A DNA stretch of 60,346 nt from a virus. Taxonomy: Duplodnaviria; Heunggongvirae; Uroviricota; Caudoviricetes. Positions within the stretch are counted from its first letter, which is position 1. The number at the start of each line of letters is the position of its first letter. The position numbers and the translations under genes were made by a program. The DNA is taken from IMG/VR virus record IMGVR_UViG_3300045988_141393. One strand, given 5' to 3'. Shown here piece by piece: positions 8,114 through 57,753 of this stretch. Below the pieces are notes generated by a model. It saw only the letters and a list, made by a program, of their open reading frames with translations. It searched no databases and had not been told where the DNA came from.

Positions 8114-8226
8114 CCGCCTTGTTAAGTTAAATTTCTAACATAGTGTATTTATATACACTGTTGATCCTGGTGGATGGGATCGAGTAGGATCGCGGTCACT
8201 GCTCCGGTAGCGACTGCCAAAAAAGC

Positions 8227-8253
8227 AAAAGCCGCTGAGAAGCGGCTTTTTGG
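8227..8253 (+). terminator. Rho-independent terminator
   Basis: AAGCCGCT-gaga-AGCGGCTT followed by TTTT. Confidence 0.5.
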
Positions 8254-8313
8254 GTGTATAAATCCACTGCCATAGATTTATACGGTAGATAGATTTTTTC
8301 ACGGAACTATCTG

Positions 8314-9276
8314 GTGAGTATTTTAAATTCAGTTTCAGTAACTTTCAACACTTCTGAGTATAAAAACAACACTGAATACCACAAAAAAATCAAAGGTCAT
8401 CAGTTGAGTTTTTTTGCTCGTCATAGCGGTCTTCTTTCCCCTTCACATAGCGCCATTATTGCCGAGTTCGCCAACCTGGCAGGGTCTACCGATGAATACA
8501 TGATCCGTCGCTCATATGCTGATATGTCCGAGATTACAGGACGCAGCATTTCTACTGTGCGCCGGGCATTTGCTGAAGCGACGAAGTGCGGAATGCTTGT
8601 TAAGCAACATCAGGTAGCGAATAACAATGCCCAGGTGTGTAACGTATATCGGTTTACGACACAATTTCTCCACTTCATTCATGTAGCAATGGAGATAGGG
8701 GGTAAGCAGGGCATCAAATTTGCCAACGCCACAAAGCTGGTTAAGCAGTTGATTTCAAAGGTTCGTTATTTTTTTGAAACTGGGAACCCCCTGTTCAAAT
8801 TGAACAAGTCCCCCCATGTTCAAAATGAACAGCCAATAGAAAATAAGAGTCACTCTATAGCCAAAAGAAGAGAAAGATCATGCGCGGTTCAGCCAAAGGC
8901 TTCACCAGCAAATAGTTCTCAAGCGGATAATGGGGGGCTGGATAAAAAACCAGTAATCAGGGAAGAACATACCAACCACTGCCTGGCGGCGGCAAAAGCG
9001 AGAGCTGCAAAGCGTCGTTCAGACGAGGGGCACGCAAAACGGCAGGCTCTGTATCGTACCGCTGAAAAGCTGGCAAAAAAATTTGCATGGATACGTAGTG
9101 CCGCTACCGCAGTGAATAAGCCTAAACAATCCAGTGCCCTGGATTTCTCAATGGATTATTCTGGCTCCCAGGGGTGTGCAACCATTGGTGAAGCCTTTGA
9201 CCTGATGAAACAGCGTGGCTATCGGTCTGAATTTGACCGTGAGGATTGGTCAATCCCGGCGGGCTTTAGGGGGTGA
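8314..9276 (+). CDS. Helix-turn-helix protein, possible replication or regulatory protein
   Basis: 320 aa; HTH-like segment TGRSISTVRRAFAEATKCGML; basic C-terminus. Confidence 0.35.
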   Translation: MSILNSVSVTFNTSEYKNNTEYHKKIKGHQLSFFARHSGLLSPSHSAIIAEFANLAGSTDEYMIRRSYADMSEITGRSISTVRRAFAEATKCGMLVKQHQVANNNAQVCNVYRFTTQFLHFIHVAMEIGGKQGIKFANATKLVKQLISKVRYFFETGNPLFKLNKSPHVQNEQPIENKSHSIAKRRERSCAVQPKASPANSSQADNGGLDKKPVIREEHTNHCLAAAKARAAKRRSDEGHAKRQALYRTAEKLAKKFAWIRSAATAVNKPKQSSALDFSMDYSGSQGCATIGEAFDLMKQRGYRSEFDREDWSIPAGFRG

Positions 9277-9330
9277 CCTGTGTGTCTACAAAACATCCCA
9301 ATGATCGGAAAATGCTCGTTCGATAATTTG

Positions 9331-9360
9331 TGTTAGAAAATTAATTTGCTGTTTCTAAAT
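9331..9360. promoter_or_regulatory. Inverted pair of the recurrent TGTTAGAAA / TTTCTAAA motif (candidate repressor operator) upstream of the first Icd/Ant module
   Basis: tgttagaaaa (9331..9340) and gtttctaaat (9351..9360) in inverted orientation. Confidence 0.4.
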
Positions 9361-9559
9361 CGGAATGTATGATCTGCATCATCGACTGAAGTCATCCATT
9401 GCTGAAATTTTTAGTTGATCTTCCATGTTTTCAGGCTTATATTCATGCCGTCGTAGCAAATTCTGCGACCAGGTTTGACAGCCTGAATGTTAGTGCGGAC
9501 AACCGCAGATTTCCGATATTGCGGTATTTTTGTGTCCGTAAACCGCGTTACGCCCGAAT

Positions 9560-9689
9560 TATGGTGGGGCGTGATGGGGAGGCTTCGGCCTGCTGGTTTC
9601 ACTAACGCCAGTCTGTCAACCCTGTCACGTCCTGCCACCTGTTTGACAGCGGGTAGCAGGTTGTTAAACCTGTTAGTGAGGCCGTAACT
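9560..9689 (+). ncRNA. Candidate c4-like antisense RNA / structured leader of Icd-Ant module 1
   Basis: Non-coding stretch directly upstream of icd-like ORF with hairpin CAGGTT-gtta-AACCTG, palindrome CTGTTTGACAG and complementary segments CACTAAC / GTTAGTG on the same strand. Confidence 0.3.
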
Positions 9690-9914
9690 ATGGTTAATGC
9701 CAATCCTTGCTCACGTCCTGAATTCATCTGGCGTTTCCACTCCCTGCAAAAACACTGCGATCACTTCGCAATTGCCGCAACCGAAAAAGAAGCCCGTTCT
9801 CTGATCCCTGATCAGCATGGTGTTCTTACTGGTCGTTTCTCTACTTCCCCACAACCAAACACTAATCCCTGGTATCGCAATATTACCAATCCCGGCATTG
9901 CGGAGGCACACTGA
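9690..9914 (+). CDS. icd: Icd-like protein (cell division inhibitor family), copy 1
   Basis: 74 aa; motif EFIWRFHS...AAT-EKEARSL; stop overlaps ATG of downstream Ant-like gene; paralogue at 47297..47512. Confidence 0.5.
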   Translation: MVNANPCSRPEFIWRFHSLQKHCDHFAIAATEKEARSLIPDQHGVLTGRFSTSPQPNTNPWYRNITNPGIAEAH

Positions 9915-10621: not shown

Positions 10622-10818
10622 TGGACATCATGCAGGCGGTAAAAAAAATCAGGGAAGGACAGGCTGAAGTGTGCCGCCGTAAAGCATGGAGTGTTGGTGT
10701 ATGGGCCTGGCCTGATAATTACTCTACTACCGGATGGTTTTGTATTAATGGACTCCAGATCCGGGAAGTTGATTTATCGACGGCTGATATAGTCGGTAAT
10801 GATTGGATCGTGACTTGA
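10618..10818 (+). CDS. DUF2829-like small protein (Tad2-type fold candidate)
   Basis: 66 aa; VCRRKAW ... DIVGNDWIVT; homologous to the C-terminal extension fused to the second Ant copy. Confidence 0.4.
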   Translation: MMDIMQAVKKIREGQAEVCRRKAWSVGVWAWPDNYSTTGWFCINGLQIREVDLSTADIVGNDWIVT

Positions 10819-10826
10819 AGCGTGAT

Positions 10827-10851
10827 GCCCCGGCCTGGCCGGGGCTTTTTT
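10827..10851. terminator. Bidirectional hairpin terminator between convergent genes
   Basis: GCCCCGG-cctgg-CCGGGGC followed by TTTTTT. Confidence 0.5.
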
Positions 10852-11336: not shown

Positions 11337-11487
11337 ATTTTTCTCCCGGTAATGGGTTAATAAGTAGGCAAACTATGGGGAGTATGTGATTTTGACGGTA
11401 GTATCGTCCCCCTGAAAATAACATTCTCCATACCCTCTCAACCGTACCGCATAGCGGAATTTTTTACGGTTTAGAGGGGGAAATCCT

Positions 11488-19058: not shown

Positions 19059-19379
19059 AAATAACAGGTTGGGTAAATGCCATGCGATTTACCCTCCTTG
19101 TTGATTAAGGTCACTCTTTACTCTAAAAGCAAATCCGACCTGTTGCATATAGACCATCCTTGAGTAGTATCTCTCTTGTTTTACAAATCTAACGTTGTTG
19201 TTATTATTTCGCATATTTACTATCAATGGGTGTGTTAGAAAATAGCGCGAAAGAGAAGGCGTCGCAGTGAATATTCTGAAACATCCCCACATGCCGCAGC
19301 TCTTAGAGAACTGGAGAAAAACCCAGATCTAATCAAAAGGAACCATGAGCATTACGAGCAGGTTCGCGTCCTGGACTGG

Positions 19380-19688
19380 TTGTATCGCAATATGCGTTAT
19401 GTGTATGAGCATACTCACGCCACTCCAAACGGTGGCCTGCGAGGCATAAGGACGGCAATAAAAATGGTGGCAGAGGGCCAAAAGAAGGGATATCCCGATC
19501 TTTCTATAGACCTTGCTTGTGGGGGATACCACGGAATGCGCATTGAGATGAAACATGGGAGAAATCGCCTGACTCCCGAACAACTCGTCTGGATGACCCG
19601 CCTCACTGAAGCCGGTTACTACTGCTTTGAGGCGCGCAGTGCCGCTGAAGCCATAAAAGCTATCACGGAGTATGTTTGTCTTGATTAA
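19380..19688 (+). CDS. VRR-NUC-like nuclease domain protein
   Basis: About 100 aa; GYPDL ... GG-HGMRIEMK motif typical of VRR-NUC (PD-(D/E)xK) proteins; TTG or ATG start. Confidence 0.45.
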   Translation: MYRNMRYVYEHTHATPNGGLRGIRTAIKMVAEGQKKGYPDLSIDLACGGYHGMRIEMKHGRNRLTPEQLVWMTRLTEAGYYCFEARSAAEAIKAITEYVCLD

Positions 19689-20232: not shown

Positions 20233-20274
20233 GTTTATTGCATCTTCCGGTACCGCCATCAAACTAATAAAATA

Positions 20275-20284
20275 TGTTAGAAAA
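20275..20284. promoter_or_regulatory. Recurrent TGTTAGAAA motif upstream of 20298 gene
   Basis: tgttagaaaa 14 bp upstream of ORF. Confidence 0.35.
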
Positions 20285-20297
20285 CTAATTTAACAAA

Positions 20298-21521
20298 GTG
20301 ACGGGAACAGCAATGAGTCAACACACTGATACTTCTAATCTGGAAATTATCTCGACAGCAATTGAAACGCTGCGCACACAAATCGCTCTTATACAGAAAC
20401 GGAATCCGGGTGATGACCTGTCAAAGCGACTGCACGAGAGTGTCATTGCCACTACAGATAACCTGGTGGCGGAAATCAACAAGCTGCTTGATGATGGGGC
20501 AGTTGATTACAATAAGCTGGTGGATCAGTTTGAGGAATACCAACAAGCCGTTAATGATGGCTTGATCCGTTTTTCACAAGTCACAGGCGTATCAGCGACA
20601 GTTGAAAGCCTGGGTGATGCAGTTAATCAATTTGCCGCGAATATGCGTAATGAGATCGGCAATCTGGAAGCGCGTCTTGAACAGGCAAATACACTGCGTA
20701 AATCTGCCGAAGCCGATTTGAACCGTTACAAAAAAGACTATCCGCCCAGCCTGACAAAGCGGCTGGATGTTGCGGAGAAGGATAACCGCGCGCTGAAAAG
20801 AGAGCGCCGGGAACTAAAAGAGCGTTTAACCAAGCTCAATCAGCAATGCATTGATTATCAAGGCGAAGGCGTCACACTGCGTAAAAAGTTGGCTACAGCG
20901 CAGAGCATTATCGAAACATTAAAGCGAGAGTGCTCACAGCTTGGTCACGATCTGAACCGTGCTTGTGGCATGGGACAAAGACCAGAGACATTTCCACTCA
21001 TGTATGATGGAAGGGATGCCATTGCCTACATCCATGAGTATCCGCACGGCCTGGTTGCGGAAACAGGGCAGCGTGGCGAAGCACTGTTGACGGCTAATTA
21101 CCATCAACAAATCAGAACCAATCGCCTGTTAACGATGGATGTGATCCCATCGGTATGGGGAACGCCGCTTTACTATCGCCTGCCGGGCTTCGAAAAGGAC
21201 TGGAATACCGACATAGACGAATGTCTCGCAGATAAAATTATGGCGTACCTGGAGACGGATTTTCCGCGCTTATATCGCCGGATTATGGACTCTAAGGATG
21301 CGCCAATCGATGAATTAAAAATGCGTCCGGAGACGCTGGAGGCAATCAAGCAGACGGAGTTTGATACTGTATTCAGTGTGGCCTGCATTCCAAGCTGTTT
21401 CCATGAAAGCATCCCGTTCATGCAAGGAGATCGTCGTCAGGAAATCATTGACGCTTGCCGGGTATGGGCGAACGAATGGGATAAGAAGAATGGGGGTGTA
21501 GAAGATCTTTATGGGAAATAA
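20298..21521 (+). CDS. Hypothetical protein with N-terminal coiled coil
   Basis: 407 aa ORF. Confidence 0.4.
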   Translation: MTGTAMSQHTDTSNLEIISTAIETLRTQIALIQKRNPGDDLSKRLHESVIATTDNLVAEINKLLDDGAVDYNKLVDQFEEYQQAVNDGLIRFSQVTGVSATVESLGDAVNQFAANMRNEIGNLEARLEQANTLRKSAEADLNRYKKDYPPSLTKRLDVAEKDNRALKRERRELKERLTKLNQQCIDYQGEGVTLRKKLATAQSIIETLKRECSQLGHDLNRACGMGQRPETFPLMYDGRDAIAYIHEYPHGLVAETGQRGEALLTANYHQQIRTNRLLTMDVIPSVWGTPLYYRLPGFEKDWNTDIDECLADKIMAYLETDFPRLYRRIMDSKDAPIDELKMRPETLEAIKQTEFDTVFSVACIPSCFHESIPFMQGDRRQEIIDACRVWANEWDKKNGGVEDLYGK

Positions 21522-22099
21522 TGTGTTAGAAATCTAAAATCACAATTCGAATGTATTGATTGTGGAGATAACTTAACATAGAATTTTCCTTGCTGGTGGG
21601 CAGTACCCACGTTTCGCTTGCTGGGCTTGATAGTCACTTATTGGTTATTGTTCGCCCACCAGCATTTAACAAATTAAAGTGTTAGAAAAGTATGGTAATG
21701 CAAGAGCACGCTTTGGCACCGTGCAGGCCAAAGTTCAGCAGGTTTAGTGCGGAAAGTGGTTTCAGAGAGAGCACTTTGCGGAGTAAACGACAATACATGT
21801 TGAGCCACGGAAGGTCTTTTTAAGGTGTTCATTGATGATGGTCCGGCAGAGAGTAACGGTACATGCTGCATCTAATCATCAATGCACATCTTCAACATTA
21901 AGGAGGCATAGGGATTTTTGTGGCGGTTACCTTTTGCCCTGAGTCTCCTTAATGTTGCGGTAATGCACCTATGCGGATGTGGCCTTGCATTGTGTCTTGA
22001 AAGAATGGGGTAAGGCCGGGGATATCCCCAGGGGGAGGCACCCCCGCTGCAACGAACAGCCACAGACGGCAGTCGAGTGATGGAAACGTGTAAAGACTT

Positions 22100-22755: not shown

Positions 22756-22832
22756 GATGGTGTAGCTCAGTAGGATAGAGCAGCAGCCTTCTAAGCTGTC
22801 GGTCGGTGGTTCGAATCCACCCACCATCGCCA
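22756..22832 (+). tRNA. tRNA-Arg (anticodon UCU)
   Basis: Manual cloverleaf: acceptor GATGGTG/CACCATC, D GCTC/GAGC, anticodon loop CUUCUAA, T-loop TTCGAAT, 3' CCA encoded. Confidence 0.8.
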
Positions 22833-22837
22833 ATTTA

Positions 22838-22924
22838 GGGGAGTTAGTCCGTAGGGGTAGCGGGGTAGACTGTAAATCTACTGTCATTGCGACTCGGGTG
22901 GTTCGACTCCATCACTCCCCACCA
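22838..22924 (+). tRNA. tRNA-Tyr (anticodon GUA), long variable arm
   Basis: Acceptor GGGGAGT/ACTCCCC, anticodon stem GTAGA/TCTAC with loop CTGTAAA, T-loop TTCGACT, CCA encoded. Confidence 0.7.
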
Positions 22925-22928
22925 AATT

Positions 22929-23004
22929 GCCGGTTTAGCTCAGTTGGTAGAGCGCCTGCCTTGTAAGCAGGATGTCAGCGGTTCGAGTCCGTTAACCGGC
23001 ACCA
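22929..23004 (+). tRNA. tRNA-Thr (anticodon UGU)
   Basis: Acceptor GCCGGTT/AACCGGC, anticodon stem CCTGC/GCAGG loop CTTGTAA, T-loop TTCGAGT, CCA encoded. Confidence 0.8.
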
Positions 23005-23406
23005 ACACAACAGGTAAGGGCATTCTCCCTTATGGGGCTTGGCTTAAATGCATCGAGTGCTCTTACCGTTGTGATGAAGTGCAGCTCTTTGAAGCAACCA
23101 GAAGATAAGCATCTGGCTTCACAACATAAACCGCAGGAACGACCAATAAACGGTAGTCCGTATGGAGAACACCCCGTTGAGGAAGAGGCCTGGCCGGAAC
23201 CGTAACCGGCACCACAACGTTGAGAACACTGGCGTAACGGGGTCATATCCCAATCTATGAATAAATGTTGCGTTGCAGCGTGACAACCAGTGTTCTCAAC
23301 ATTGTGGTGAATGCACAGGCTGATGTGCCGCAACTACAGTAGTGCGCGCTTTGCGGGGCTTGCTACAACCCTGTGTCGGAGTTCAGCACCGACCATCACA
23401 ATCACT

Positions 23407-23493
23407 GGAGAGTAGGGAGCATGGTGCTCAAGCGGTCTTGAAAACCGTCCCATTGCGCAAGCGATGATGGTTCGATTCCATTACTCTCCGCCA
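23407..23493 (+). tRNA. tRNA-Ser (anticodon UGA) candidate, class II
   Basis: Acceptor GGAGAGT/ACTCTCC, anticodon stem GCGGT/ACCGT loop CTTGAAA, 17-nt variable arm, T-loop TTCGATT, CCA encoded; short D-loop makes it less certain. Confidence 0.55.
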
Positions 23494-23756
23494 GTGCAAC
23501 GTTAAGAGTATTTGGCTAATTAAGCGAATGCCGGAAGCAGAACCGGATCACCAAATGCGTACAGGCGTCATCGCCGCCCAGCCAGCCAAGTGCTCTTACC
23601 ATTGCGGTGAATGCGGCTAAGCGCACGCGGAACAGTTAAAACAATCCTCCTTAGTGGTTAAGTCAAACATCCCGGCGTTAATTGTTAACTGGTTAACGTC
23701 ACCTGGAGGCACCAGGCACCGCAGCTTTTTTATTCGGTAAATAATGGAGTGAGAGG

Positions 23757-23993
23757 ATGCAGAACAATCCGAACAAATGTCGAACGCTATGGGTGCGGTT
23801 ATATATTTATGTCGTCCTCTGTTTGATTGTGTCACTGGTTCTGTATGTTTGGCTTTTGCCAAATATGATCTCATCTGACAGCACAATACTTGTATTGTTG
23901 GGAGTCCTTCTCGCGCTCATTTACCCGGCTTTTGCAGTAGTCTTTTTTCGTGAAAAAACCAGGAAATTGATTAATGAAAAAAACGTTGATTAG
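23757..23993 (+). CDS. Small membrane protein
   Basis: 78 aa with two hydrophobic helices; overlaps start of downstream SPFH gene. Confidence 0.3.
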   Translation: MQNNPNKCRTLWVRLYIYVVLCLIVSLVLYVWLLPNMISSDSTILVLLGVLLALIYPAFAVVFFREKTRKLINEKNVD

Positions 23994-24801
23994 TGCAGCG
24001 ATTATTTTTGGTTCTTTATGTCTGACCGGATGCGATCGGGTAGAGCCAGGTAACGTAGGGATCAAAGTAAATAAGCTGGGGGATGATAAAGGTATCGGTG
24101 AAGTAGTTGGCGTTGGTCGCTACTGGACAGGCTTGAATACTGAAGTTTATATCTTCCCGACCTTTAAGCAAATGAAGACATACGATGAGCCGTTCAGCTT
24201 CCAGATGAGCGACGGAACAACCATTGGTTACCACATCGGCGTAGCCTACAAGGTTGATCCAGCAAAAGTCACAACGGTATTTCAGACCTATCGCAAAGGT
24301 GTAGATGATATTACTGATACCGATCTACGCCAGAAGGTTGCAGATGCTCTGAACCGGTTAGCCAGCAAAATGACCACCGACAAATTTATCGACGGTGGCA
24401 AATCTGAATTGCTTGATGCAGCCCTTAAAGACATTCAGGAAGAAATGACGCCCATCGGTATTCAGGTAATGAGCCTCTCATATGTGGGCAAGCCGGAGTA
24501 CCCGCCAACCGTTATCGACAGCATTAATGCCAAAGTCACGGCGAACCAGAAAACTCTGCAACGCGAGCAGGAAGTCAAGCAACGCGAAGCAGAAGCCAAC
24601 ATGCTGCGCGCAGAAGCTGCTGGACAGGCCGATGCCATTCGCACAAAAGCCCAAGCTGAAGCTGATGCCATTCGTTTACGCGGTGAGGCTCTGCGCCAGA
24701 ACCCCGGCGTTATGGAGTTGGAAGCGATCAACAAATGGAACGGAACGCTACCGCAGTATATGACCAGTAATACCGCTGTTCCGTTTGTTCCGGTGAAATA
24801 A
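23974..24801 (+). CDS. SPFH/band-7 domain lipoprotein
   Basis: 275 aa; signal peptide with lipobox LCLTGC; coiled-coil A/E/Q-rich C-terminus typical of prohibitin/HflC-like proteins. Confidence 0.5.
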   Translation: MKKTLISAAIIFGSLCLTGCDRVEPGNVGIKVNKLGDDKGIGEVVGVGRYWTGLNTEVYIFPTFKQMKTYDEPFSFQMSDGTTIGYHIGVAYKVDPAKVTTVFQTYRKGVDDITDTDLRQKVADALNRLASKMTTDKFIDGGKSELLDAALKDIQEEMTPIGIQVMSLSYVGKPEYPPTVIDSINAKVTANQKTLQREQEVKQREAEANMLRAEAAGQADAIRTKAQAEADAIRLRGEALRQNPGVMELEAINKWNGTLPQYMTSNTAVPFVPVK

Positions 24802-24955
24802 CCAAATAGATAACATGATGGAATTTTGGACGTTTGCCGACAAGAACCCTTGGTGGACATTTTTATTTCTGCTGGTGGTTGCATATGGGGTCGAGCAAGC
24901 AGCAAAAGCCTTACGCGGTCCTGGCAAAAAGCGTAAGCGGAATTAACAGTAATCT

Positions 24956-25031
24956 GGCCCTTTAGCTCAGTGGTTAGAGCTGGCGACTCATAATCGCACG
25001 GTCACCGGTTCAAGTCCGGTAGGGGCCACCA
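24956..25031 (+). tRNA. tRNA with CAU anticodon (Ile2 lysidine-type or elongator Met)
   Basis: Acceptor GGCCCTT/AGGGGCC, anticodon loop CTCATAA, T-loop TTCAAGT, CCA encoded; resembles enterobacterial ileX-type tRNA. Confidence 0.7.
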
Positions 25032-26061: not shown

Positions 26062-26453
26062 TGTACGGGACTACCAAATTAAGCACTCAACAGGCCACCA
26101 ATATGGAGTGGTCTATCGCTAACTGTAAGATCGTGTCATGCAATGCCACGCGTACTGATGTGGGCCATAAAAGCACTATAACAGGCTATCTAGTAATGAC
26201 CACCAGGGGGATGAGGGTTAGATTTCGCTGGAAAGCAGAGCAAGTAACGCCATTCAGAGAGCCATCAATGCCGCTGCAGGTTGAGCAGGATTATCTATGT
26301 TTACCAGAAATAGATGGAGGAATGCTGGTGGAGTCTGATGGTAGTAAGGCTGATTTTGAAGCCAATTTGAAGCTGGCACAGGCCGTAATCAATAGTTATC
26401 GCGGAAAGTGGATCGCAAAAGTGAAACATGTTGTTCGTTTGTCTCGCTGGTAG
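26061..26453 (+). CDS. Hypothetical protein
   Basis: 130 aa, ATGA overlap with upstream gene. Confidence 0.35.
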   Translation: MYGTTKLSTQQATNMEWSIANCKIVSCNATRTDVGHKSTITGYLVMTTRGMRVRFRWKAEQVTPFREPSMPLQVEQDYLCLPEIDGGMLVESDGSKADFEANLKLAQAVINSYRGKWIAKVKHVVRLSRW

Positions 26454-26561
26454 CGTTAGGTATTTAATATTAATTATCTAATATAATCATCTTTTTACCA
26501 GTCTATACAGTTTTAACATTCTCATTATCATCCCCTCGGTCATTTCCTGCCCGGGGGATTA

Positions 26562-29850: not shown

Positions 29851-30888
29851 TTACCAGAGCTTCGCGGCGTACTGCGTTTGGGGGAATGTGTATCCGTAAC
29901 GTTCTTCGATTGCTTTGCCGTATTTTTTACGAGCTTCATTCAGTTTAATGCCGGTCAGGTCGTCTCCAGAGGCCATCATTACGTCTAACAATTCCAGATC
30001 CATTTTATCCAGCCTTGCCATTGCTTCACGTGATGTACGTATCTTACGTTCAATGATATGGCGAATAGCCGGATCGGCATCCTCCAGCATCTTAGCGGAT
30101 TTCTGCTTAAGGCTTTCATTGCGAATATCGATGTTCCTTAAGATGTACGACTTCGCAACGTAGCTTGGCTGGTGTTTTTCCAGGTCACGAACACGATATA
30201 AGTTAAAATCGCCGAGAAGGCTGCAAGGTACCGATTCGACGCCAGAATAAATTGTAATGCTCCGGCGTTCACCAACATTATTGACAACGGGGATCGTTGT
30301 CTTCGGTAGTCTTGCGAAAACCAATGCGCCATGTGCGCCAACTCTAAAGCGAGAAAGGGCATTGCTGCCTTCGATGTTTGTTGTCAGCACAACATCTGTA
30401 TATGCCTCTTTACGCGCCCGGTAGATCTCGCCTTCAGGCTCAGCTTCAAAGAAGCGCTGTTCTTCTTCAAGAGCACCTACGATTTGAGAAAAAACCCTAT
30501 TTTTCAGGCTTTTCTTTATGATTTTGTCGTATTTTTTTAGCAATTGTTCACGTGTAAATGTACGTGTTGTTGTAGCGCTTTGCACAACGACATGCGTGCT
30601 TTGATTGGTGTCCTCAATGATGAATGGGATCGGAGAATATACAGACTCAACAATGTTCGACGCTTTGCCGTCGGCATCGCGGCACATGTCAACGAAGGCT
30701 TTCCATTCAGCAAGACATTTTTCAGCTTCTTCTAATATGTTTTGGTCATGCGTTAATGCAACATGGCGGAATTCCTCGCCAGCATAACTGGTATCATGGA
30801 AAACAGAGTTTGCGACCACCAGCTCTTTCCACCGTTCAGCGGTTTGCAGGAACCGTTTGTACTCTTTCTCGATCGACTTCTTACTCAT
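29851..30888 (-). CDS. Hypothetical protein in the immunity-repressor (C1) position
   Basis: 345 aa, AGGA RBS; lies between terminase genes and lox-Cre as c1 does in P1; recurrent operator-like motif 20 bp upstream of its start; identity not verified. Confidence 0.3.
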   Translation of the reverse strand: MSKKSIEKEYKRFLQTAERWKELVVANSVFHDTSYAGEEFRHVALTHDQNILEEAEKCLAEWKAFVDMCRDADGKASNIVESVYSPIPFIIEDTNQSTHVVVQSATTTRTFTREQLLKKYDKIIKKSLKNRVFSQIVGALEEEQRFFEAEPEGEIYRARKEAYTDVVLTTNIEGSNALSRFRVGAHGALVFARLPKTTIPVVNNVGERRSITIYSGVESVPCSLLGDFNLYRVRDLEKHQPSYVAKSYILRNIDIRNESLKQKSAKMLEDADPAIRHIIERKIRTSREAMARLDKMDLELLDVMMASGDDLTGIKLNEARKKYGKAIEERYGYTFPQTQYAAKLW

Positions 30889-30906
30889 TATTCCTACTCG
30901 ATTTAG

Positions 30907-30916
30907 TTTTCTAACA
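30907..30916. promoter_or_regulatory. Recurrent TTTCTAACA motif in promoter region of C1-position gene
   Basis: ttttctaaca immediately upstream of the minus-strand start at 30888. Confidence 0.4.
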
Positions 30917-31097
30917 TAAAATTACTATGACAAATTTATGTCGAATAACAGAGTGAGTAAAGGATCGAACTGTGATTTTTTGTCATCAATTTTAGAAAAC
31001 CAACCGTAGAAACCACACTTCGCAAATTAAAGACCATGAAGGCAACGTGTTACTGGTCATCATCAATCTATGATGGATTTAAAAAAATCGGCATTTT

Positions 31098-31282: not shown

Positions 31283-32311
31283 ATGAGTGAATTAATTATC
31301 TCTGGCAGTTCCGGTGGTTTTCTGCGCAACATTGGCAAAGAGTACCAGGAAGCCGCAGAAAACTTTATGCGGTTCATGAATGACCAGGGAGCTTATGCGC
31401 CGAATACTCTGCGCGACCTCCGTTTGGTGTTTCATTCCTGGGCGCGCTGGTGTCACGCTCGCCAGCTTGCCTGGTTTCCGATCTCACCAGAAATGGCCCG
31501 CGAGTATTTTCTTCAGCTGCATGATGCCGATCTGGCTTCGACCACCATTGATAAGCACTACGCCATGCTGAACATGCTGCTTTCGCATTGTGGCCTTCCG
31601 CCACTTTCGGATGATAAAAGTGTTTCTCTGGCTATGCGGCGCATCCGGCGCGAAGCGGCAACTGAAAAAGGCGAACGAACAGGCCAGGCTATACCGCTGC
31701 GGTGGGACGATCTGAAACTGCTCGACGTCCTGTTGTCCAGGTCAGAACGGCTGGTGGATCTGCGCAACCGGGCTTTTCTCTTTGTTGCATACAATACGCT
31801 GATGCGTATGTCGGAAATCTCGCGTATTCGTGTAGGAGATCTGGACCAAACAGGTGACACTGTCACGCTACATATTTCACACACGAAGACAATAACGACC
31901 GCCGCCGGGCTTGATAAGGTGCTTTCCCGTCGCACTACCGCTGTGCTGAATGACTGGCTGGATGTTTCCGGGCTTCGCGAACATCCTGACGCAGTGCTGT
32001 TCCCGCCGATACACCGTAGCAATAAGGCCAGGATCACGACAACGCCCCTTACTGCACCTGCAATGGAGAAAATATTCAGCGACGCCTGGGTGTTGCTGAA
32101 TAAAAGAGATGCTACGCCAAACAAAGGAAGATACCGGACGTGGACCGGGCATAGTGCACGCGTCGGGGCCGCTATTGATATGGCTGGAAAGCAGGTGTCT
32201 ATGGTGGAGATCATGCAGGAAGGAACCTGGAAGAAACCGGAAACACTTATGCGGTATCTTCGCCGTGGCGGCGTGTCTGTGGGGGCTAATAGCCGCCTGA
32301 TGGATTCGTAA
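31283..32311 (+). CDS. cre: Cre-like tyrosine site-specific recombinase
   Basis: 342 aa (P1 Cre is 343); blocks WARWCHARQLAWFP, RNRAFLFVAYNTLMRMSEISRIRVGDLD, WTGHSARVGAAIDMA, IMQEGTWKKPETLMRYLR parallel Cre. Confidence 0.8.
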   Translation: MSELIISGSSGGFLRNIGKEYQEAAENFMRFMNDQGAYAPNTLRDLRLVFHSWARWCHARQLAWFPISPEMAREYFLQLHDADLASTTIDKHYAMLNMLLSHCGLPPLSDDKSVSLAMRRIRREAATEKGERTGQAIPLRWDDLKLLDVLLSRSERLVDLRNRAFLFVAYNTLMRMSEISRIRVGDLDQTGDTVTLHISHTKTITTAAGLDKVLSRRTTAVLNDWLDVSGLREHPDAVLFPPIHRSNKARITTTPLTAPAMEKIFSDAWVLLNKRDATPNKGRYRTWTGHSARVGAAIDMAGKQVSMVEIMQEGTWKKPETLMRYLRRGGVSVGANSRLMDS

Positions 32312-32384
32312 ATTAAATTTCTAACACATCTTTTTAGATTAACGTCTTTGCTGTAAAGTACCCTCGCCTATTTAGGAGGGTGCT

Positions 32385-34376: not shown

Positions 34377-35144
34377 ATGGAAAGCACTAAAACAATTCAA
34401 TACCGCTTGCGTAATGGCCTGCTGGTGGCTGTTAACGCCGACATGTCACTGCCGTTTGACACGATTGAACGCACTATCATGACGTATCTCGGCTTTAATG
34501 AAGAGCTGAATGAAGAGCATGGCGTAGCTATATGGAGTGATGCAGACAGCGGCGTTCGTCGTTACATCACCGCCAGGGGCAAAGACTACTCTCTGGAAGA
34601 ACTGTTTGCCCTTGCGCAGTCTTTCGAATGTGTAGCATTAGACCTGTTTAATGATCCTGCTATAGCGCAACGACTTATACGCGAGCTTGGGCTATCCGTT
34701 ACACCAATTATCTTTAAAAATGGCAGCCTGACTGGCACATGGCGCGTAGAACGCATCTCAAACTACCTTCCATATAACCGACAGTTAAATGGAGTAATCT
34801 CCGGCGTTAATCAGCCCGTAGCGTGTGAAAATGTAAACCTGGTTGTCGCTGTTTTGGCAACCGCATGTCGTGTTATCGGTTTGGCTAAACAGGCATTTAT
34901 TCATTTCCCAAATGGTGCAGAAGGTAGCGCAGAGATTATCGCGTGTGATTTCGAATTTACCTGGATGCTACGCGAATATCTGGACCAAACAGTATTCCGT
35001 GCCGAAGAACTGGATATGTATATCACGTCAACGATTCCAGACGATGTGCGAGCTGAAGCAATCGCTACAGCCAGGGCGAAATGCCGTGCGGCGATTGCAG
35101 AACAGGCCAAAGAAGAAGTTAAGGAAGTGGCAGATGGCGACTAA
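34377..35144 (+). CDS. Hypothetical protein
   Basis: 255 aa ORF. Confidence 0.35.
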   Translation: MESTKTIQYRLRNGLLVAVNADMSLPFDTIERTIMTYLGFNEELNEEHGVAIWSDADSGVRRYITARGKDYSLEELFALAQSFECVALDLFNDPAIAQRLIRELGLSVTPIIFKNGSLTGTWRVERISNYLPYNRQLNGVISGVNQPVACENVNLVVAVLATACRVIGLAKQAFIHFPNGAEGSAEIIACDFEFTWMLREYLDQTVFRAEELDMYITSTIPDDVRAEAIATARAKCRAAIAEQAKEEVKEVADGD

Positions 35145-36228
35145 GAGCAATATTTATAAAGATCCGCGCTGGCTGTCGCTGGTGGAGAAATATAAAGACA
35201 ATTGGGTACTGGCAGCAAAAGAATTGTTTGATATTGATTTAAGCCACCAGCAACAACAAATTGTTGAAGCTATACAGCCCAACAATGCAAAAGCTACTGT
35301 CACCACTCCGTATGGGATCGGACGACCGCAAGTGCTTGCTGTTATTAGTACCCTTTATACGATTATGTATCCTGATTCCCGGACAGTAATTGTTTATCCA
35401 AAATCAAATGCTTGCAAAAGAGGAATTGTTGCATATGTGTGGCAATGTTGGGAGGCATTACTGAAAAAACAACCTTTTATCATTGAGTATTTTAAGGTCG
35501 GTGATAGCGGTCTGATGTTCAATGAATTTTGGGGAATGTGCTTTTGTAACTACCGCCTTAACTATGAAGATAGCATTGCAGGTCACTACGCCGACCATCT
35601 TTTATTCATTATTGTGGATTCCGCACATATCAGCGATCGGGCATACAGCATTGTGTGGGCAAGCATGACTAGTGGTGATTCACGCATATTGCTCACTTCA
35701 ATTCCGTCACCAGAGGAAATAGGCTTTTTTTATGATTCACATCATGGACGTGCTTTAGCTGAAGATAATACGAGTGGTGTATATAAAGCCATTAAGCTGA
35801 GTGCGGAGGATTCACCATTTATTACCCAAGAATATCTTGATCATTTTGCCGAAAGGTATGGCGGGCGAAATAGTGATGACTATCGTCGTATGATTCTTGG
35901 TGAGTTCCCTGGTATTAGGGAGGCTGTTCTTGAATCAGATATGCCGAAGACAATGCGCTTTTCGATGCCTGATGGTAGTGAATGGACAATGCCATTACGA
36001 GTGATAGCCCGGCATCATGCGCAGCACCACGCCAAAAAACATGGCGTCACGACATTAGAATGGTTGAAATCGCACACTATTCCACTCTTCACTGCAGATC
36101 ACAATGCTATCGTTGAGTGGGCAAAAACAATTCCGTGGGAGCATGTCGCTGAATATGCTCACATGCTAAAACCGCCGAAAGACAGGCACGAAATTAGCTG
36201 GCTGACAGCCGAAAAAATCATTGAATGA
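35134..36228 (+). CDS. Terminase-large-subunit paralogue with degenerate ATPase motifs
   Basis: 364 aa from ATG 35134; shares DPRW, SHQQQQI, FYDSHH, SPF-T, YGGR, LG-FP blocks with 28315..29823 but Walker A is TPYGIGRPQ and Walker B is LLFIIVDSAH; no nuclease-like C-terminus. Confidence 0.45.
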   Translation: MATKSNIYKDPRWLSLVEKYKDNWVLAAKELFDIDLSHQQQQIVEAIQPNNAKATVTTPYGIGRPQVLAVISTLYTIMYPDSRTVIVYPKSNACKRGIVAYVWQCWEALLKKQPFIIEYFKVGDSGLMFNEFWGMCFCNYRLNYEDSIAGHYADHLLFIIVDSAHISDRAYSIVWASMTSGDSRILLTSIPSPEEIGFFYDSHHGRALAEDNTSGVYKAIKLSAEDSPFITQEYLDHFAERYGGRNSDDYRRMILGEFPGIREAVLESDMPKTMRFSMPDGSEWTMPLRVIARHHAQHHAKKHGVTTLEWLKSHTIPLFTADHNAIVEWAKTIPWEHVAEYAHMLKPPKDRHEISWLTAEKIIE

Positions 36229-42703: not shown

Positions 42704-42745
42704 AATGTATACCGACTCTGTTTTGTTCCGAGCGGTAAAATAATA

Positions 42746-42776
42746 TGTTAGAAAACTAAAATCAATGTTCTAACAC
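42746..42776. promoter_or_regulatory. Inverted pair of recurrent motif (candidate operator) upstream of DUF968 gene
   Basis: tgttagaaaa (42746..42755) and tgttctaaca (42767..42776). Confidence 0.4.
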
Positions 42777-42800
42777 ATTTTGAGTGCGTAAATGATTTGA

Positions 42801-45789: not shown

Positions 45790-45828
45790 GTCCTCCAAAC
45801 ATTTATCAGTGATGATATTAATGTTTTG

Positions 45829-45838
45829 TGTTAGAAAA
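45829..45838. promoter_or_regulatory. Recurrent TGTTAGAAA motif upstream of ref-like gene
   Basis: tgttagaaaa about 70 bp upstream of 45907. Confidence 0.4.
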
Positions 45839-45906
45839 TCAATTTTGAATATCTAACTGTTTTGATCAATCATAGAAAAATCGTTGAAAAGTAAGAGACT
45901 GCCATC

Positions 45907-46485
45907 ATGCAGAAACAGAGTTATTGGGAGAAACAGAGACAAAAAGCCATGCAAAAATTGGCTGACCCGGCCTGGCGAGAGGAACAAAGGGCAAAGCGCC
46001 TTCAACAAGCTCAACGCCAGCAGCAGCGAGCGAGAGAAAAAGCCGCATCGCCTGAATATCGGCAAAAGAAAATTGAAAAAGCAAAGCAATATGAACAGCG
46101 GAGAAAAGATAAAGCTGTATCCGCTCCGCCCAAGAAAACACGCACGTCACGCGGCCTGAAAGGCAGATCACTCACAGCCGATGAACGCCGGATACAGACC
46201 GCTATCGGTACTCTCCCCTGCATTGCCTGCCATATTCACGGGCAACATAGCCCAGTGGTATCCCTGCACCATATCTTCGGGAGAACGGCAGAGAACGCGC
46301 ATAAATATGTCCTCCCTTTGTGTAAATGGCACCACCAGTACGCAGCGCCAGCCGAGGTCCGAGAACAATATCCCTGGCTGGTCCCGGTTCATGCTGACGG
46401 AAAAATAGGCGGAAAAGCAGATTTCATGCGGCACAATGCCGATGAAATGGCGTTGTATCAGATGGCGATTGAATTGATAAATTAG
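45907..46485 (+). CDS. ref: Ref-like HNH endonuclease (recombination enhancement function family)
   Basis: 192 aa; basic low-complexity N-terminus followed by HNH core CIACHIHGQH ... HHIFG ... CKWHH. Confidence 0.6.
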   Translation: MQKQSYWEKQRQKAMQKLADPAWREEQRAKRLQQAQRQQQRAREKAASPEYRQKKIEKAKQYEQRRKDKAVSAPPKKTRTSRGLKGRSLTADERRIQTAIGTLPCIACHIHGQHSPVVSLHHIFGRTAENAHKYVLPLCKWHHQYAAPAEVREQYPWLVPVHADGKIGGKADFMRHNADEMALYQMAIELIN

Positions 46486-46816
46486 TTTTCTAACATTTTA
46501 AGTTGAATTGAAAAATGCTCCGATGTACATTCACTACCGATTGGCACACCGGTCAACTTTTTGAGACAAACTATTTAGTTTTTCGTATGATTGCCGCCGC
46601 CATACCAATGGCGGTGCAATATAGGTGGCTGAAAAGCCCCCGTTGACTCACGGTGTTCCAGCCTTTATTGCGCCGCCACCAGACCGTGGAACAGTCGATG
46701 GCGGCTCCGAAAGCAAGGAGTCACTACACTATGAACAGCTACTGTCTTTTCCCATCACTCGTTGTCCGCCACTCACGCGATAATCTGCATTCTTTACTCG
46801 CGCTGGGGGTGTCAAA

Positions 46817-46984: not shown

Positions 46985-47087
46985 AATACTGACTGTTGCG
47001 CCCTGGCATTATCGTGGGGTATATTTCTACGGCACCTTAGAAAAACGGGTGCCGGGATTGGAACCCCGGATAATGCAAAAGGCGACA

Positions 47088-47111
47088 CAGACGCCGAAAG
47101 CGTCTTTTTTT
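47088..47111 (+). terminator. Rho-independent terminator
   Basis: GACGC-cgaaa-GCGTC followed by TTTTTTT. Confidence 0.55.
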
Positions 47112-47149: not shown

Positions 47150-47296
47150 CAGAGATCAATGGTAGTGCTGGCTGGGCTGCCGAAAGGCAGGCCGGTTCCC
47201 TTTTGCGCCGGTAGTTCCAACCCAGTCAGTGCTACCGCCATTGAGATTGGAACCTCACGCGGTAGCTCCTTAAATTAGCAAAAGGAGGCTGCCATT
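47150..47296 (+). ncRNA. Candidate c4-like antisense RNA / structured leader of Icd-Ant module 2
   Basis: Interleaved complementary segments GTTCCAA / TTGGAAC and GCTACCGC / GCGGTAGC upstream of the icd-like start. Confidence 0.3.
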
Positions 47297-48453: not shown

Positions 48454-48462
48454 TTACTGTTG

Positions 48463-50154: not shown

Positions 50155-50447
50155 TTCATTAACTCCATACCTTACCATCTTTGCCGCGAGCGCGGTCCCT
50201 AAAACCCTTAACTTCACTGCACCGTCCTTCATGCAATCAAAATGACTTTTATGTTATAAAAATAATCAGCCAAATCAACATGATTTAGGCCAAATTTCTG
50301 TCAAAAAATAAAATCCACAAAAAGTGGTTGACACTATTTTGGAAATCACAAACTGCACATAATCCATCGCGCTAACGGCTCCCGTTGAAGGTTCTTTTGA
50401 CGATTAACTTTCAGCCGAAGCGCGGTAGGGAGTCATAACGCCAAAGC

Positions 50448-51771: not shown

Positions 51772-51779
51772 GGAACACT

Positions 51780-53671: not shown

Positions 53672-53705
53672 TTGACAACACAGGCGGTCATACAGACCGC
53701 CAAAC

Positions 53706-54065: not shown

Positions 54066-54068
54066 GAT

Positions 54069-54371
54069 TTACTCCAGTTCTATTGTATCAGCTTCAATGG
54101 CATCGTATTCCTTATGTGTTCCAATAAACTTAACGAACATCCATCCTCGCTGATAAGCAATTGCGACAATTAACCTGTAATCATTTCCCTTAATATTGAA
54201 CACCACGCGCCTGTTTTTAAGGATGCTGGCTGTCCGGTACTGTTCTTTGATCTCAGCCGGATTTTTCCAGTCAGCCTTTGTTGCTTCATCAACCCATGCC
54301 TTTAATGGCTGTTCTGCATCGGGATTCTTCGCCCAGAAATCCCTTAGTGTTTTTACCGAAATTATTTTCAT
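54069..54371 (-). CDS. higB: HigB-type toxin (second module)
   Basis: About 100 aa from ATG 54371; MKIISVKTLRDFWAKNP ... FIGTHKEYD resembles HigB toxin family; encoded upstream of its antitoxin. Confidence 0.6.
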   Translation of the reverse strand: MKIISVKTLRDFWAKNPDAEQPLKAWVDEATKADWKNPAEIKEQYRTASILKNRRVVFNIKGNDYRLIVAIAYQRGWMFVKFIGTHKEYDAIEADTIELE

Positions 54372-54516
54372 CACAGATTCCTTCTCGCTGAAAGTATAGT
54401 AGTCCCAATATGGGACAATGTAAAGCACTTTAGTCCCATGTTGGGATATGAATTGAAATCACAATCTCCAGACAATGCACCCTCGATACCTGATAAATCG
54501 ACCTTTGAGGATGCTT

Positions 54517-55308: not shown

Positions 55309-56072
55309 CTTCAAATAAAACCCTCCTGGCGCGAACAGGTGAATGGCAAACCTCACGCACAGGAAAATTCCAGACCACGGGCTTTGAAAACGTGGATAAC
55401 GCGTTTGCGACGCTAATCAGCAACATTTTTTCTGATATCTTACTTGTGGCCCCCGCGCCGGAAGAAAAACGCTTTGCGTCATTCCTGAATCGTCCACCAG
55501 CAGAGCGTGTCTATGTGGCCCGTTTCGACAATGCGATCGAGTTTCTTAAAGCAGTTCGTCGCGCAAATGCCGGGCAAGGGAGAAAACCTGAAAACCAGAA
55601 CATTAACCGGGATGCTCTCCCCCTGGTCAATATCTCACGCACTATGGATATCAATTATATCAACGATGATCAGCAGATTGACCGCAAAAAAGTAGCCAGT
55701 TTTTGCGAACCGGATACCGGAATGCCTTTAGCAGAACTGGAATACACCCAGGCCATTCTGACGTATGACGTTACGTTAATGGCAACTGATAAAGCGACCA
55801 TGAGTCTGATGTGTAATTCGCTGGGCGCACGGCTTCGCCTGATGACAGGTACACAATTTGAAGCAACCACTCACCTTGTTCGTGTCCCGGTCCCGCTGAT
55901 TTGCTCGATACAGGATGCCAAAGAAGTCGGCTTTACGGATGTTTCAGCACCAATTGGAGAAGAGCGTATTTATGCCACACAAGCGCCGATAAGTGTGATT
56001 GCAGACGTGATCACAGCATGGGAGTTGGACGCAAAACGTATTATTACCGAAACCTCGATATCTATGGGGTGA
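55305..56072 (+). CDS. Hypothetical protein (possible virion/baseplate component)
   Basis: 255 aa ORF, ATGA overlap with neighbours. Confidence 0.35.
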   Translation: MTSNKTLLARTGEWQTSRTGKFQTTGFENVDNAFATLISNIFSDILLVAPAPEEKRFASFLNRPPAERVYVARFDNAIEFLKAVRRANAGQGRKPENQNINRDALPLVNISRTMDINYINDDQQIDRKKVASFCEPDTGMPLAELEYTQAILTYDVTLMATDKATMSLMCNSLGARLRLMTGTQFEATTHLVRVPVPLICSIQDAKEVGFTDVSAPIGEERIYATQAPISVIADVITAWELDAKRIITETSISMG

Positions 56073-56075
56073 TAA

Positions 56076-57056
56076 GTGGCCCAGGAGTTACAACAATATT
56101 TTCTACAGTCAGTGCTCATTAACGATAACAAAGTGCCACGAGACTGGATTTTTACCGCAGTATATGTAGAAAAAACCAGCCTCAAAGCCCCTTTGCTAAA
56201 ACTGGAAATTCATGACGCTACCGGCACCGTAATTGATGACTGGAAAGCCAAATACGGTGCATCGCTGGTGGCTGAAATGGGCGATCCAAACGGTAATGCA
56301 GGCACTTTTAAAACAGATTTCTTTGTTACGTCTGCAATGCTGGCTGGTGATGTTGTTACCGTTATTGCTGTCAGTGAAGACGTGCGCAGGTTTAAGATCC
56401 CCTCCCCGCGCACAAATTTACATACCAACAAAACACCAGACGCTATATTCAAGGCATATTCCGGCAAGCTTAAAATTACCAGCAGCGTGCTAAAACGCGC
56501 AGTTACATATCATCTGAATGCCGGTGACAAACCGTCAAAAATGCTCTCGCAGATAGCGCGAGACAAAGGTGCATTATGTTGGGTATGCCGTGGGGAATTT
56601 AACTTTTACACCCTGGCTGATCTGATGAAGCAAACGCCATCATTTACCTACGAGGGGAATAACCCTAAAGCAGAATACACTTTGTCCAAAATGCGCCTAC
56701 TCCAACAGGAACATGCGACAACAGCAAAGAATCAATATCGTTTTGTTGGGTATTCCATGACCGATGGCTACGTCGAATATGGCGATAGCTCACTCCCAGT
56801 GCGTTATATATCCGACTCTGATATGGAAACTCTTCGCAATATGCAGCTGTCTCTCGTCCCCAAAATGGATATAGAAGTCGCAGGCAATCCGGATATAAAA
56901 CCGGGAATGGTAATAGAGATTATCGTATACCGCTATGACCAGGAAAACCGCATTGATGAATCAATGCCCCGCAAGCTGATAGTAAAAAATGTTGCGCACT
57001 TTGAAGACCGCGTAGGCTACACAACACGAATGATATTAGGAGTGCCGAACAAATGA
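56076..57056 (+). CDS. Hypothetical protein (possible baseplate component)
   Basis: 326 aa ORF directly upstream of spike-like gene. Confidence 0.35.
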   Translation: MAQELQQYFLQSVLINDNKVPRDWIFTAVYVEKTSLKAPLLKLEIHDATGTVIDDWKAKYGASLVAEMGDPNGNAGTFKTDFFVTSAMLAGDVVTVIAVSEDVRRFKIPSPRTNLHTNKTPDAIFKAYSGKLKITSSVLKRAVTYHLNAGDKPSKMLSQIARDKGALCWVCRGEFNFYTLADLMKQTPSFTYEGNNPKAEYTLSKMRLLQQEHATTAKNQYRFVGYSMTDGYVEYGDSSLPVRYISDSDMETLRNMQLSLVPKMDIEVAGNPDIKPGMVIEIIVYRYDQENRIDESMPRKLIVKNVAHFEDRVGYTTRMILGVPNK

Positions 57057-57706
57057 AGCGTAGAGCGCAAATTGTTGGAACTGTGCACCCGGCAGGGCTT
57101 ATGCGTGCTCAGGTCCGTGTTTTACCAGACTGGAATGGCGTTCCTGATGACGATCTACCCTGGGCAGAATACCTGTTACCCATAGGTAACGCGTTTGTAC
57201 CTACAGTAAAAGGCGACCTGGTATGGGTAGAGTTTCCTTATCTGGATGTTAATGGTCGAATTGATACCAGACGCCCAATGATAGTTGGCGCAGCTCAGGA
57301 TGCGCCTGGCGGAGTACCAAACGTCGCGCCGGAGGCGTCAGGCAATGGTAGCGGCTGGACGCCACCAGAAGTAGACGGAGCGCCTCCCCGCCCGCAATTT
57401 TCGGCGACAAAAGATTTCGTGATTCACCGCAACAATGTGCTCGAAGTGCGAACGGCTGGCGGTGGATATGAAATAGCGAATACGGCAGCAGGCTCAAGGA
57501 TTGGAATGAATGAATCAGGGCAGATATACATCATTGGTCCGGCTGATGTAGTAGTGAATGCGGGAGGGAGTGTTAACGTCAAATCAGCCGATAACATCAG
57601 CGTTAATGGCAAAAACATTACTGTGACAGCCGACGAAAATATTGATTTCAAGGCTGGAGGCACCTTCCAGGCTATCGCAAGCAACTTTGATTTCAAGAAG
57701 GGATAG
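57053..57706 (+). CDS. Baseplate central spike protein (gpV-like)
   Basis: 217 aa; N-terminal IVGTVHPAGLMRAQVRVLPDWNGVPDDDLPWAEYL ... GDLVWVEFPYLDVNG resembles gpV OB-fold; Gly/Asn-rich beta-helix-like C-terminus. Confidence 0.45.
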   Translation: MKRRAQIVGTVHPAGLMRAQVRVLPDWNGVPDDDLPWAEYLLPIGNAFVPTVKGDLVWVEFPYLDVNGRIDTRRPMIVGAAQDAPGGVPNVAPEASGNGSGWTPPEVDGAPPRPQFSATKDFVIHRNNVLEVRTAGGGYEIANTAAGSRIGMNESGQIYIIGPADVVVNAGGSVNVKSADNISVNGKNITVTADENIDFKAGGTFQAIASNFDFKKG

Positions 57707-57722
57707 AAAACACATCCAATTG

Positions 57723-57753
57723 TGTTAGATAATTGAATAGAATTTTCTAACAC
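57723..57753. promoter_or_regulatory. Inverted pair of recurrent motif (candidate operator) upstream of rdgC-like gene
   Basis: tgttagat (57723..57730) and ttttctaaca (57744..57753). Confidence 0.4.

Follow-up and report, generated by a model that had tools for sequence, protein, structure and literature searches.

Dispersed intergenic motifs in a D6-like plasmid prophage as probable operators of a distant relative of the P1 C1 repressor

The DNA analyzed here, a single stretch of 60,346 bp from the IMG/VR virus record IMGVR_UViG_3300045988_141393 (hereinafter, the window), encodes on its minus strand a prophage repressor gene, c1, and carries, scattered over its intergenic regions, multiple copies of a short asymmetric motif with the core TGTTAGAAA. 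Sequence comparison identifies the window as a D6-like plasmid prophage: proteins of phage D6 map over nearly its whole length, with most of the genes 92-100% identical, the pac-c1 region is ~98% identical to the corresponding region of D6, and many E. coli plasmids match the window at 93-97%. The c1 product is identical to that of D6 orf1, which is annotated as 'prophage repressor, similar to P1 C1'. The original prediction on this DNA listed the motif at 11 intergenic loci and interpreted these as candidate operators of the immunity repressor. Our analysis supports this assignment along several lines, namely, the intergenic placement of the sites, the correspondence of the target genes with those of the P1 repressor, phylogenetic footprints, joint variation of motif and repressor among relatives, and the homology of the latter to P1 C1. 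Taken together, these comparisons make it very probable that the D6-type C1 repressor of the window uses the motif as its operator.

The core 9-mer is strongly over-represented. The 12 exact copies on the two strands compare with 0.42 +/- 0.70 copies in dinucleotide shuffles of the window, with a maximum of 3 among 100 shuffles; one of the 12, the copy upstream of pmgM, had been overlooked. In an unbiased ranking of enriched 9-mers, TGTTAGAAA comes second, directly behind Chi. As a separate observation, no 9-mers are more strongly over-represented in the window than those of Chi sites (GCTGGTGG), and the same holds for related plasmids; the Chi-type 9-mer TGCTGGTGG is present in 16 copies in the window, with 0.82 expected. 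Alignment of the 12 exact copies reveals that TGTTAGAAA is the core of an asymmetric site of ~20 bp, aTrTGTTAGAAAAyTAAtTT, the information content of which extends to approximately position -2 on one side of the core and +16 on the other, for a total length of ~19-21 bp. A search of both strands with a 21-nt position weight matrix (PWM) yielded 14 matches above 15 bits compared to 0.22 expected from Markov simulations, the 12 exact copies on which the PWM was trained scoring by construction.

In the gene map derived from D6, none of the 12 exact copies falls within a coding sequence, although three touch a stop codon, and the 11 loci listed previously are all present where they had been placed, to within 1 nt. 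The complete D6 genome shows the same partition: it is 89.5% coding, and all 15 PWM matches above 12 bits fall within the 10.5% that is non-coding. The motif faces either way relative to the downstream gene, a mixed orientation that would be more natural for a repressor site than for a promoter element. At least five loci contain inverted, tail-to-tail pairs (cores at 42746/42767, 57723/57744, 45829/45850, 26454/26475 and 9331/9352), and the offset between the two cores is always 21 bp. Three such pairs had been reported, and all three are real, although the partner at 9352-9360 (ATTTAGAAA) matches the core at merely 7 of 9 positions; the pairs at 45829/45850 and 26454/26475 are additions to the earlier list. 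Three of the sites, the two members of the degenerate pair upstream of lpa (26454/26475) and the distal c1 site, were found solely through conservation (Table 1).

Table 1. Predicted operators and associated features of the window, with PWM scores and, where noted, the annotated P1 operator at the corresponding position
Feature	Coordinates	Strand	Score (bits)	Position and predicted target	Conservation	P1 counterpart
c1	29851..30888	-		345-aa D6-type prophage repressor, presumed binder	100% identical to D6 orf1	
repL operator	8123..8143	-	25.7	pro-repL intergenic region, 171 nt ahead of repL (lytic replication)	ortholog in D6; Leclercia variant motif at same position	OrepL
immI-type module 1 operator	9328..9363	.	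30.1 (strong site 9328-9348, +)	upstream of c4-a1b1, C4 RNA, icd, anti-repressor; weak inverted partner 9352-9360 at 21-bp offset, under PWM threshold		Oc4
Module 1 a1b1 (Rfam)	9437-9489					
Module 1 C4 RNA (Rfam)	9557-9642					
pmgM (VRR-NUC) site	19230..19250	+	14.4	weaker site, exact core 19233-19241; just downstream of strong predicted promoter 19180-19207	ortholog in L008 (20.1 bits); variant motif in Leclercia; absent from D6	O26
pmgR/pmgS operator	20272..20292	+	31.3	between pmgR and pmgS	D6, L007, L008, L011	OpmgRa/b
tRNA-island operator 1	21521..21541	+	27.4	directly after pmgS stop codon	conserved in relatives	OpmgT, Obanab
tRNA-island operator 2	21677..21697	+	21.9		D6, L007, L008, L011	
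tRNAs	22756-25028	+		downstream of both island operators		
lpa operator pair	26451..26486	.	15.4 and 6.9	degenerate inverted pair, 76 nt upstream of lpa (late-gene activator); cores 26454 (+), 26475 (-)	same site 21-24 bits in D6, L007, L008	Olpa
c1 proximal operator	30899..30919	-	26.1	TTATGTTAGAAAACTAAATCG; ends 11 nt before c1 ATG; downstream of predicted c1 promoter		
Predicted c1 promoter	30933..30961	-		TTTACT-17-TAAATT; best sigma-70 match in region	both hexamers conserved	
c1 distal operator	30987..31007	+	8.5	one-mismatch core TTTTAGAAA at 30990-30998; inverted relative to proximal site; upstream of -35		
post-dre operator	32309..32329	-	30.5	overlaps dre stop codon; 56 nt upstream of orf117-orf116-dut-orf114-isaA operon	L007, L008, L009, L011, L012; Leclercia variant motif at same place	
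pdcB operator	42743..42778	.	28.3 + 21.2	bivalent, inverted tail-to-tail, 21-bp offset; between ppp and pdcB, minus-strand block	D6, L007, L008, L012	
orf88/ref operator	45826..45861	.	26.2 (strong site 45826-45846, +); 4.9 (weak partner, core 45850, -)	bivalent; divergent control region	block invariant in four elements even with diverged flanks; partner full-strength in L008	Oref, Oppp
immI-type module 2 operator	46478..46498	-	29.1	overlaps ref stop codon; downstream: orf86, orf85, isrK-like leader, C4 RNA, icd2, anti-repressor 2		
Module 2 isrK (Rfam)	47032-47110					
Module 2 C4 RNA (Rfam)	47155-47242					
hrdC operator	57720..57755	.	16.0 + 25.4	bivalent, 21-bp offset; 11 nt upstream of hrdC(rdgC)-dcm-dam operon	present in D6; Leclercia variant motif at same position	Odmt
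Candidate late box	3920-3930, 5367-5377, 11381-11391 (-), 50344-50354; also ~54470, ~52110			AWTCACAHMCT, n=4 vs 0.29 expected		

The set of genes downstream of these sites is the same as the set controlled by the annotated C1 operators of P1, in agreement with the earlier description of a P1-like dispersed regulon. The P1 RefSeq record contains Oc1a-e (c1, coi), OrepL, Oc4 (c4-icd-ant), Olpa, Oref, Omat (overlapping the ref stop codon), Odmt (uhr-hrdC-dmt), OpmgRa/b, O26 (pmgL-pmgM), Oppp, OpmgT, Obanab (operon of tRNAs, tciABC and ban) and Ossb (ssb-isaA). The P1 operators number 22, are scattered over the genome, share an asymmetric consensus of 17 bp, ATTGCTCTAATAAATTT, and control RepL and Lpa, among others (PMC8546580).

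The D6-type repressor family is represented in 149 plasmid records identified by tblastn, which yielded a series of C1 proteins ranging from 100% to ~25% identity to the window protein; protein searches added relatives with 51%, 48% and 44% identity. The same core is found at orthologous intergenic positions in elements whose C1 is 90, 80, 68, 51 and 44% identical. In the region upstream of c1, the sole invariant blocks among six aligned elements (C1 44-100% identical) are the proximal TGTTAGAAAA and the distal, inverted TTTTCTAA, and upstream of lpa, GTTA(G) and TCTAA, 21 bp apart, are likewise invariant in six elements. In a more distant relative, the Leclercia plasmid NZ_CP042508 (L010), which encodes a C1 with 30% identity, TGTTAGAAA is absent, and a different word, cCTTAGAATyw.T.T, stands ahead of c1, pmgM and rdgC, behind the recombinase gene and pmgS, beside ref, and in the interval that separates pro from the gene in the repL position. 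Twelve of the 14 copies of this word are intergenic, in a replicon that is 86% coding. The core words of P1, the D6-type elements and the Leclercia plasmid are mutually exclusive among the three genomes, that is, the motif co-varies with the repressor. In the Leclercia plasmid, a GATC-containing palindrome, AGTGATCAC, is enriched as well (7 copies in 30 kb, compared to 0.26 expected), and related copies of GTGATCA/TGATCAC are concentrated upstream of c1 (9133-9525), in the stretch that separates this gene from the recombinase gene; the palindrome may represent a Dam-sensitive control.

The repressor itself is, on sequence evidence, a distant relative of P1 C1 rather than an equivalog. BLASTP aligns the two proteins with 21% identity over 240 aa (E 2e-8), and hhalign matches residues 9-240 to residues 10-245 of P1 C1 with a probability of 95.6% (E 1.2e-8). 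The family Phage_P7_repressor_C1 (PF27008) is assigned to relatives that are 99% to 44% identical to the window C1, the family name coming from precomputed annotations only. A tblastn search of 50,697 phage records with the repressor retrieved D6 only. A full scan with a hidden Markov model (HMM) gave 83 clusters of homologs that fall into two length classes, a long one of 345-380 aa that matches the whole profile, and a short one of 250-285 aa, the size of P1 C1, that matches only profile positions ~5-245; a word-indexed homolog search with the profile added 1 protein, and the full HMM scan was needed for the short relatives. The two length classes indicate that the D6-type C1 carries an extra C-terminal domain of ~100 aa: residues ~9-240 correspond to the C1 core, and residues ~233-345 (window 29851-30154) to an extension that is absent from P1 C1 and is modeled as long helices. 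In these elements, which lack detectable Lxc and Coi, the modeled helical extension may be an oligomerization domain. Residues R41, R157 and R159 of the repressor are invariant.

Several observations weigh against the assignment of the motif to C1. Whole genomes co-diverge in this group, so that the co-variation is not specific to c1 and another conserved DNA-binding protein is possible. The repressor reaches only 25.4 bits (E 9e-6) against the NCBIfam model NF041318 (phage_rep_C1), the cutoff of which is 500, and has no match in the local copy of Pfam. Several of the partner half-sites in the inverted pairs score near background by PWM. Consensus sigma-70 promoter-like sites are not enriched in the region (13 compared to 17.8 expected), and few of them coincide with operators; relaxed scoring puts -35 or -10 hexamers in or beside most of the sites, with most of these overlaps depending on weak hexamer matches. 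Promoter occlusion is thus what we infer for all the loci other than c1, where the promoter hexamers are conserved.

The co-divergence bears most directly on the alternative that survives best, namely, that the sites are bound not by C1 but by a different DNA-binding protein, such as the annotated Rha/Roi-type anti-repressors or a small regulator, in which case C1 would function at other sites or have no role. Co-variation cannot separate c1 from other co-diverging genes, and the annotation of the relatives L007 and L008 includes a Rha family regulator and a 'DNA-binding protein'. However, the site set reproduces the experimentally defined P1 C1 regulon gene for gene, including the autoregulatory sites in front of c1; furthermore, the chimeric Salmonella plasmid L009, which retains only a c1-dre-dut fragment of the prophage, nevertheless has kept its two local sites, the one in front of c1 and the one that follows dre, and no Rha-family regulator is annotated in the 41 kb of this plasmid that were examined. 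A binder other than C1 is, in our assessment, improbable. Slightly less probable still is the possibility that the motif is a promoter element, either an extended -10 (TGnTAGAAA) or the site of an early-gene activator or sigma-like factor. The core does contain TG-n-TAGAAA and, on the complementary strand, TAACAT, both of which resemble a -10 element, and several sites overlap a predicted -10 or -35, but the motif faces away from the gene in the case of repL, lpa, orf117 and orf86, promoters are not characterized by inverted pairs with a constant 21-bp offset, the conserved final T of the -10 hexamer is missing from TAGAAA, and the proximal c1 site is located downstream of the conserved promoter hexamers. 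That the repeats are a chance, compositional or mobile-repeat artefact with no regulatory role, as could be suspected of an AT-rich motif in AT-rich intergenic DNA whose one-mismatch variants are just mildly enriched (26 compared to 15.9 expected), is next to impossible and effectively refuted by the shuffle controls, none of which approaches the observed count, and by the phylogenetic footprints, in which the sites stay invariant blocks amid diverged flanks, with position and pair spacing conserved.

If the motif is indeed the C1 operator, the c1 product would bind DNA carrying TGTGTTAGAAAACTAATTT and, in the plasmid-prophage state, would occupy ~13 intergenic control regions (~18 half-sites) in the window, each site overlapping or abutting a sigma-70 promoter, such that transcription would be blocked. 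The genes expected to be silenced include repL, which is responsible for lytic replication, both c4-icd-antirepressor modules, ref, the hrdC-dcm-dam operon, pmgS, pmgM, the tRNA island, the post-dre accessory operon, pdcB and the late-gene activator lpa. The c1 gene would be autoregulated via its two inverted sites, which bracket the predicted c1 promoter. A single asymmetric site suggests one repressor monomer per site, as is the case for P1 C1. The 21-bp tail-to-tail offset would correspond to two helical turns and place two monomers on one face of the DNA, with the D6-specific helical domain at the C-terminus as a possible link between them.

The original prediction saw no site ahead of the Dar and pac operons, correctly so; the structural and lysis operons lack operators and would be reached indirectly, through lpa and its conserved operator pair. 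Instead of operators, these operons have a candidate D6-type late box, AAATCACAnaCT-N3-5-TAnnnT, which is observed upstream of ddrB, prt, orf16, mat, gp7 and gp26 (Table 1). The P1-type late-promoter (Lpa) box aACAAGTGACTT was considered for this role and rejected, with just one copy in the window (51372, minus strand). Directly upstream of the lpa start codon, at 26530-26556, there is a conserved GC-rich inverted repeat (CCCCTCGG...CCCGGGGG) that is kept where the flanks have diverged, and may form an RNA hairpin affecting lpa translation.

Two other loci deserve comment on their own account. At pmgM (19194-19400), the N-terminus annotated in D6 is unusable in the window, where the frame meets a TAG within the operator core (19236-19238); the window pmgM must start downstream, possibly at the TTG at 19380, or be truncated. 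The annotated length of this VRR-NUC gene varies widely among the relatives, from 75 to 164 aa. The two anti-repressor modules differ in the type of leader RNA, which belongs to the isrK family (62.5 bits) in module 2 and is c4-a1b1 in module 1. In a region unlike D6, the 461-aa open reading frame at 34843-36228 resembles the large terminase PacB, with 37% identity to its residues 10-264, and represents a second terminase-like gene, away from the pac operon.

C1 is not known to contain any recognized DNA-binding motif. The high-confidence structural model of the window C1 (predicted local distance difference test score of 95, predicted template modeling score of 0.82) has Tus as its only match in the Protein Data Bank (PDB), a unique top hit with modest TM-scores of 0.39-0.45. 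Tus is a monomer that clamps an asymmetric site of ~23 bp, and P1 C1 binds its asymmetric operator as a monomer as well; the match would fit the mode of binding because both proteins act as monomers on asymmetric sites. Sequence homology between C1 and Tus was sought and rejected, none having been found: hhalign of the family profile against Tus gave a 9% probability, and searches of PDB sequences gave no hit, with Tus not retrieved by the profile search either. Full-text literature searches found no link between C1 and Tus. A likeness between the c1-proximal operator and TerB (TATGTT..ACTAAA) was likewise discarded after a shuffle test (the best site reached p = 0.055, and the whole motif, p = 0.36-0.58). 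We tentatively propose, with somewhat less than even confidence and on the strength of the structural model, that the P1- and D6-type C1 proteins could be structural homologs of Tus that read their operators as monomers via a Tus-like inter-domain beta-sheet clamp. In a weaker corollary of this model, the D6-specific helical extension would hold two monomers together at the pairs with the 21-bp offset, replacing the missing Lxc. If true, the likeness to Tus would explain the missing recognized DNA-binding motif of C1, and would suggest a common origin on mobile elements for the enterobacterial Tus-Ter fork trap and the immunity repressor/operator pairs of phage-plasmids, both of which have a site directly in front of their own gene; if confirmed, it would provide a structural account of the monomeric recognition of asymmetric operators by the C1 family as well as a clue to where Tus came from.

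Plasmid prophages of the D6-like kind occur commonly in E. coli, Salmonella and Shigella, and the operator word together with the site list would define an immunity group of such elements. Hetero-immune elements could be predicted from the site list, the family comprising no fewer than three operator dialects (P1, D6-type and Leclercia-type), and the early and lysogeny-controlled genes could be recognized, among them lpa, the late activator, and both anti-repressor modules. The list also offers engineering targets, such as inducible derivatives and orthogonal repressor/operator pairs to be used beside Dre/rox.

Among the closest known systems is phage D6 itself (MF356679 / NC_050154; immC fragment AY753669), which encodes the identical C1 and carries the same sites; by comparison, the window has an additional site upstream of pmgM and a weaker lpa site, and the accessory genes between ~35 and 41 kb are replaced. 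Neither D6 record has annotated operator sites, and the repressor is annotated. Full-text literature searches returned no description of the D6 operators, although one may exist in the D6 genome paper (Gilcrease and Casjens 2018, Virology 515:203) or in Sauer and McDermott 2004. One more strong operator (23.9 bits) is observed in D6 (L001/L002) at 54200-54220, in the part of the genome beyond this window, where it sits in the divergent region that separates gp23, the major capsid gene, from orf52.

A further parallel is provided by the Tus-Ter system, in which TerB is located 12 nt upstream of the tus start codon (PMC8707476), as the proximal operator is located 11 nt upstream of c1. The outcomes differ, polar fork arrest in E. 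coli in the case of Tus and, in the case of C1, transcriptional repression at many promoters.

The comparison with P1 and P7, where the C1 system (immC) has immI as its antirepressor arm, includes clear differences. The window operator, TGTGTTAGAAAAyTAAtTT, is not significantly alignable with the P1 consensus; the P1 core has no copies in the window and TGTTAGAAA has none in P1, a mismatch from which a different immunity specificity is expected. The one part of the original prediction that failed is the resemblance of the core to the P1 operator half '..CTCTAATA..': when the two PWMs were compared against a column-shuffle null, p was 0.12, and the motifs align best in opposite orientations, with TTAGA in common, so this likeness was rejected as evidence. 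The bivalent sites of the window span 36 bp with a 21-bp core offset, compared to 28 bp for Obanab and Oc1ab of P1, and the window repressor is both divergent from P1 C1 and longer, owing to the ~100-aa helical extension. Tblastn searches of the window and D6 with the P1 proteins found no co-repressor Lxc, inactivator Coi or ImcA/B at E <0.3, and homologs of Ant1/2 and KilA were not found in the window or D6 either, the anti-repressors in the two modules of the window being annotated as Rha/Roi-type. Lxc has also been reported as not detected in a D6-like plasmid (PMC6799933).

Against these differences stands an extensive similarity of layout, the whole being the P1-like arrangement that would be expected, with another operator word and a divergent repressor. 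In P1 and P7, as in the window, the repressor gene adjoins pacAB, opposite the gene for the lox/rox recombinase; the operators are asymmetric, ~17-20 bp long, dispersed and intergenic, with monovalent sites mixed with bivalent, inverted ones; and one site overlaps the stop codon of ref. C4 RNA/icd/ant modules and tRNAs lie downstream of sites in both P1 and the window. The common targets are c1, repL, c4-icd-ant, lpa, ref, hrdC-dmt, pmgR/S, pmgL/M, tRNA/tci and the isaA operon, and the cores of the repressors are homologous.

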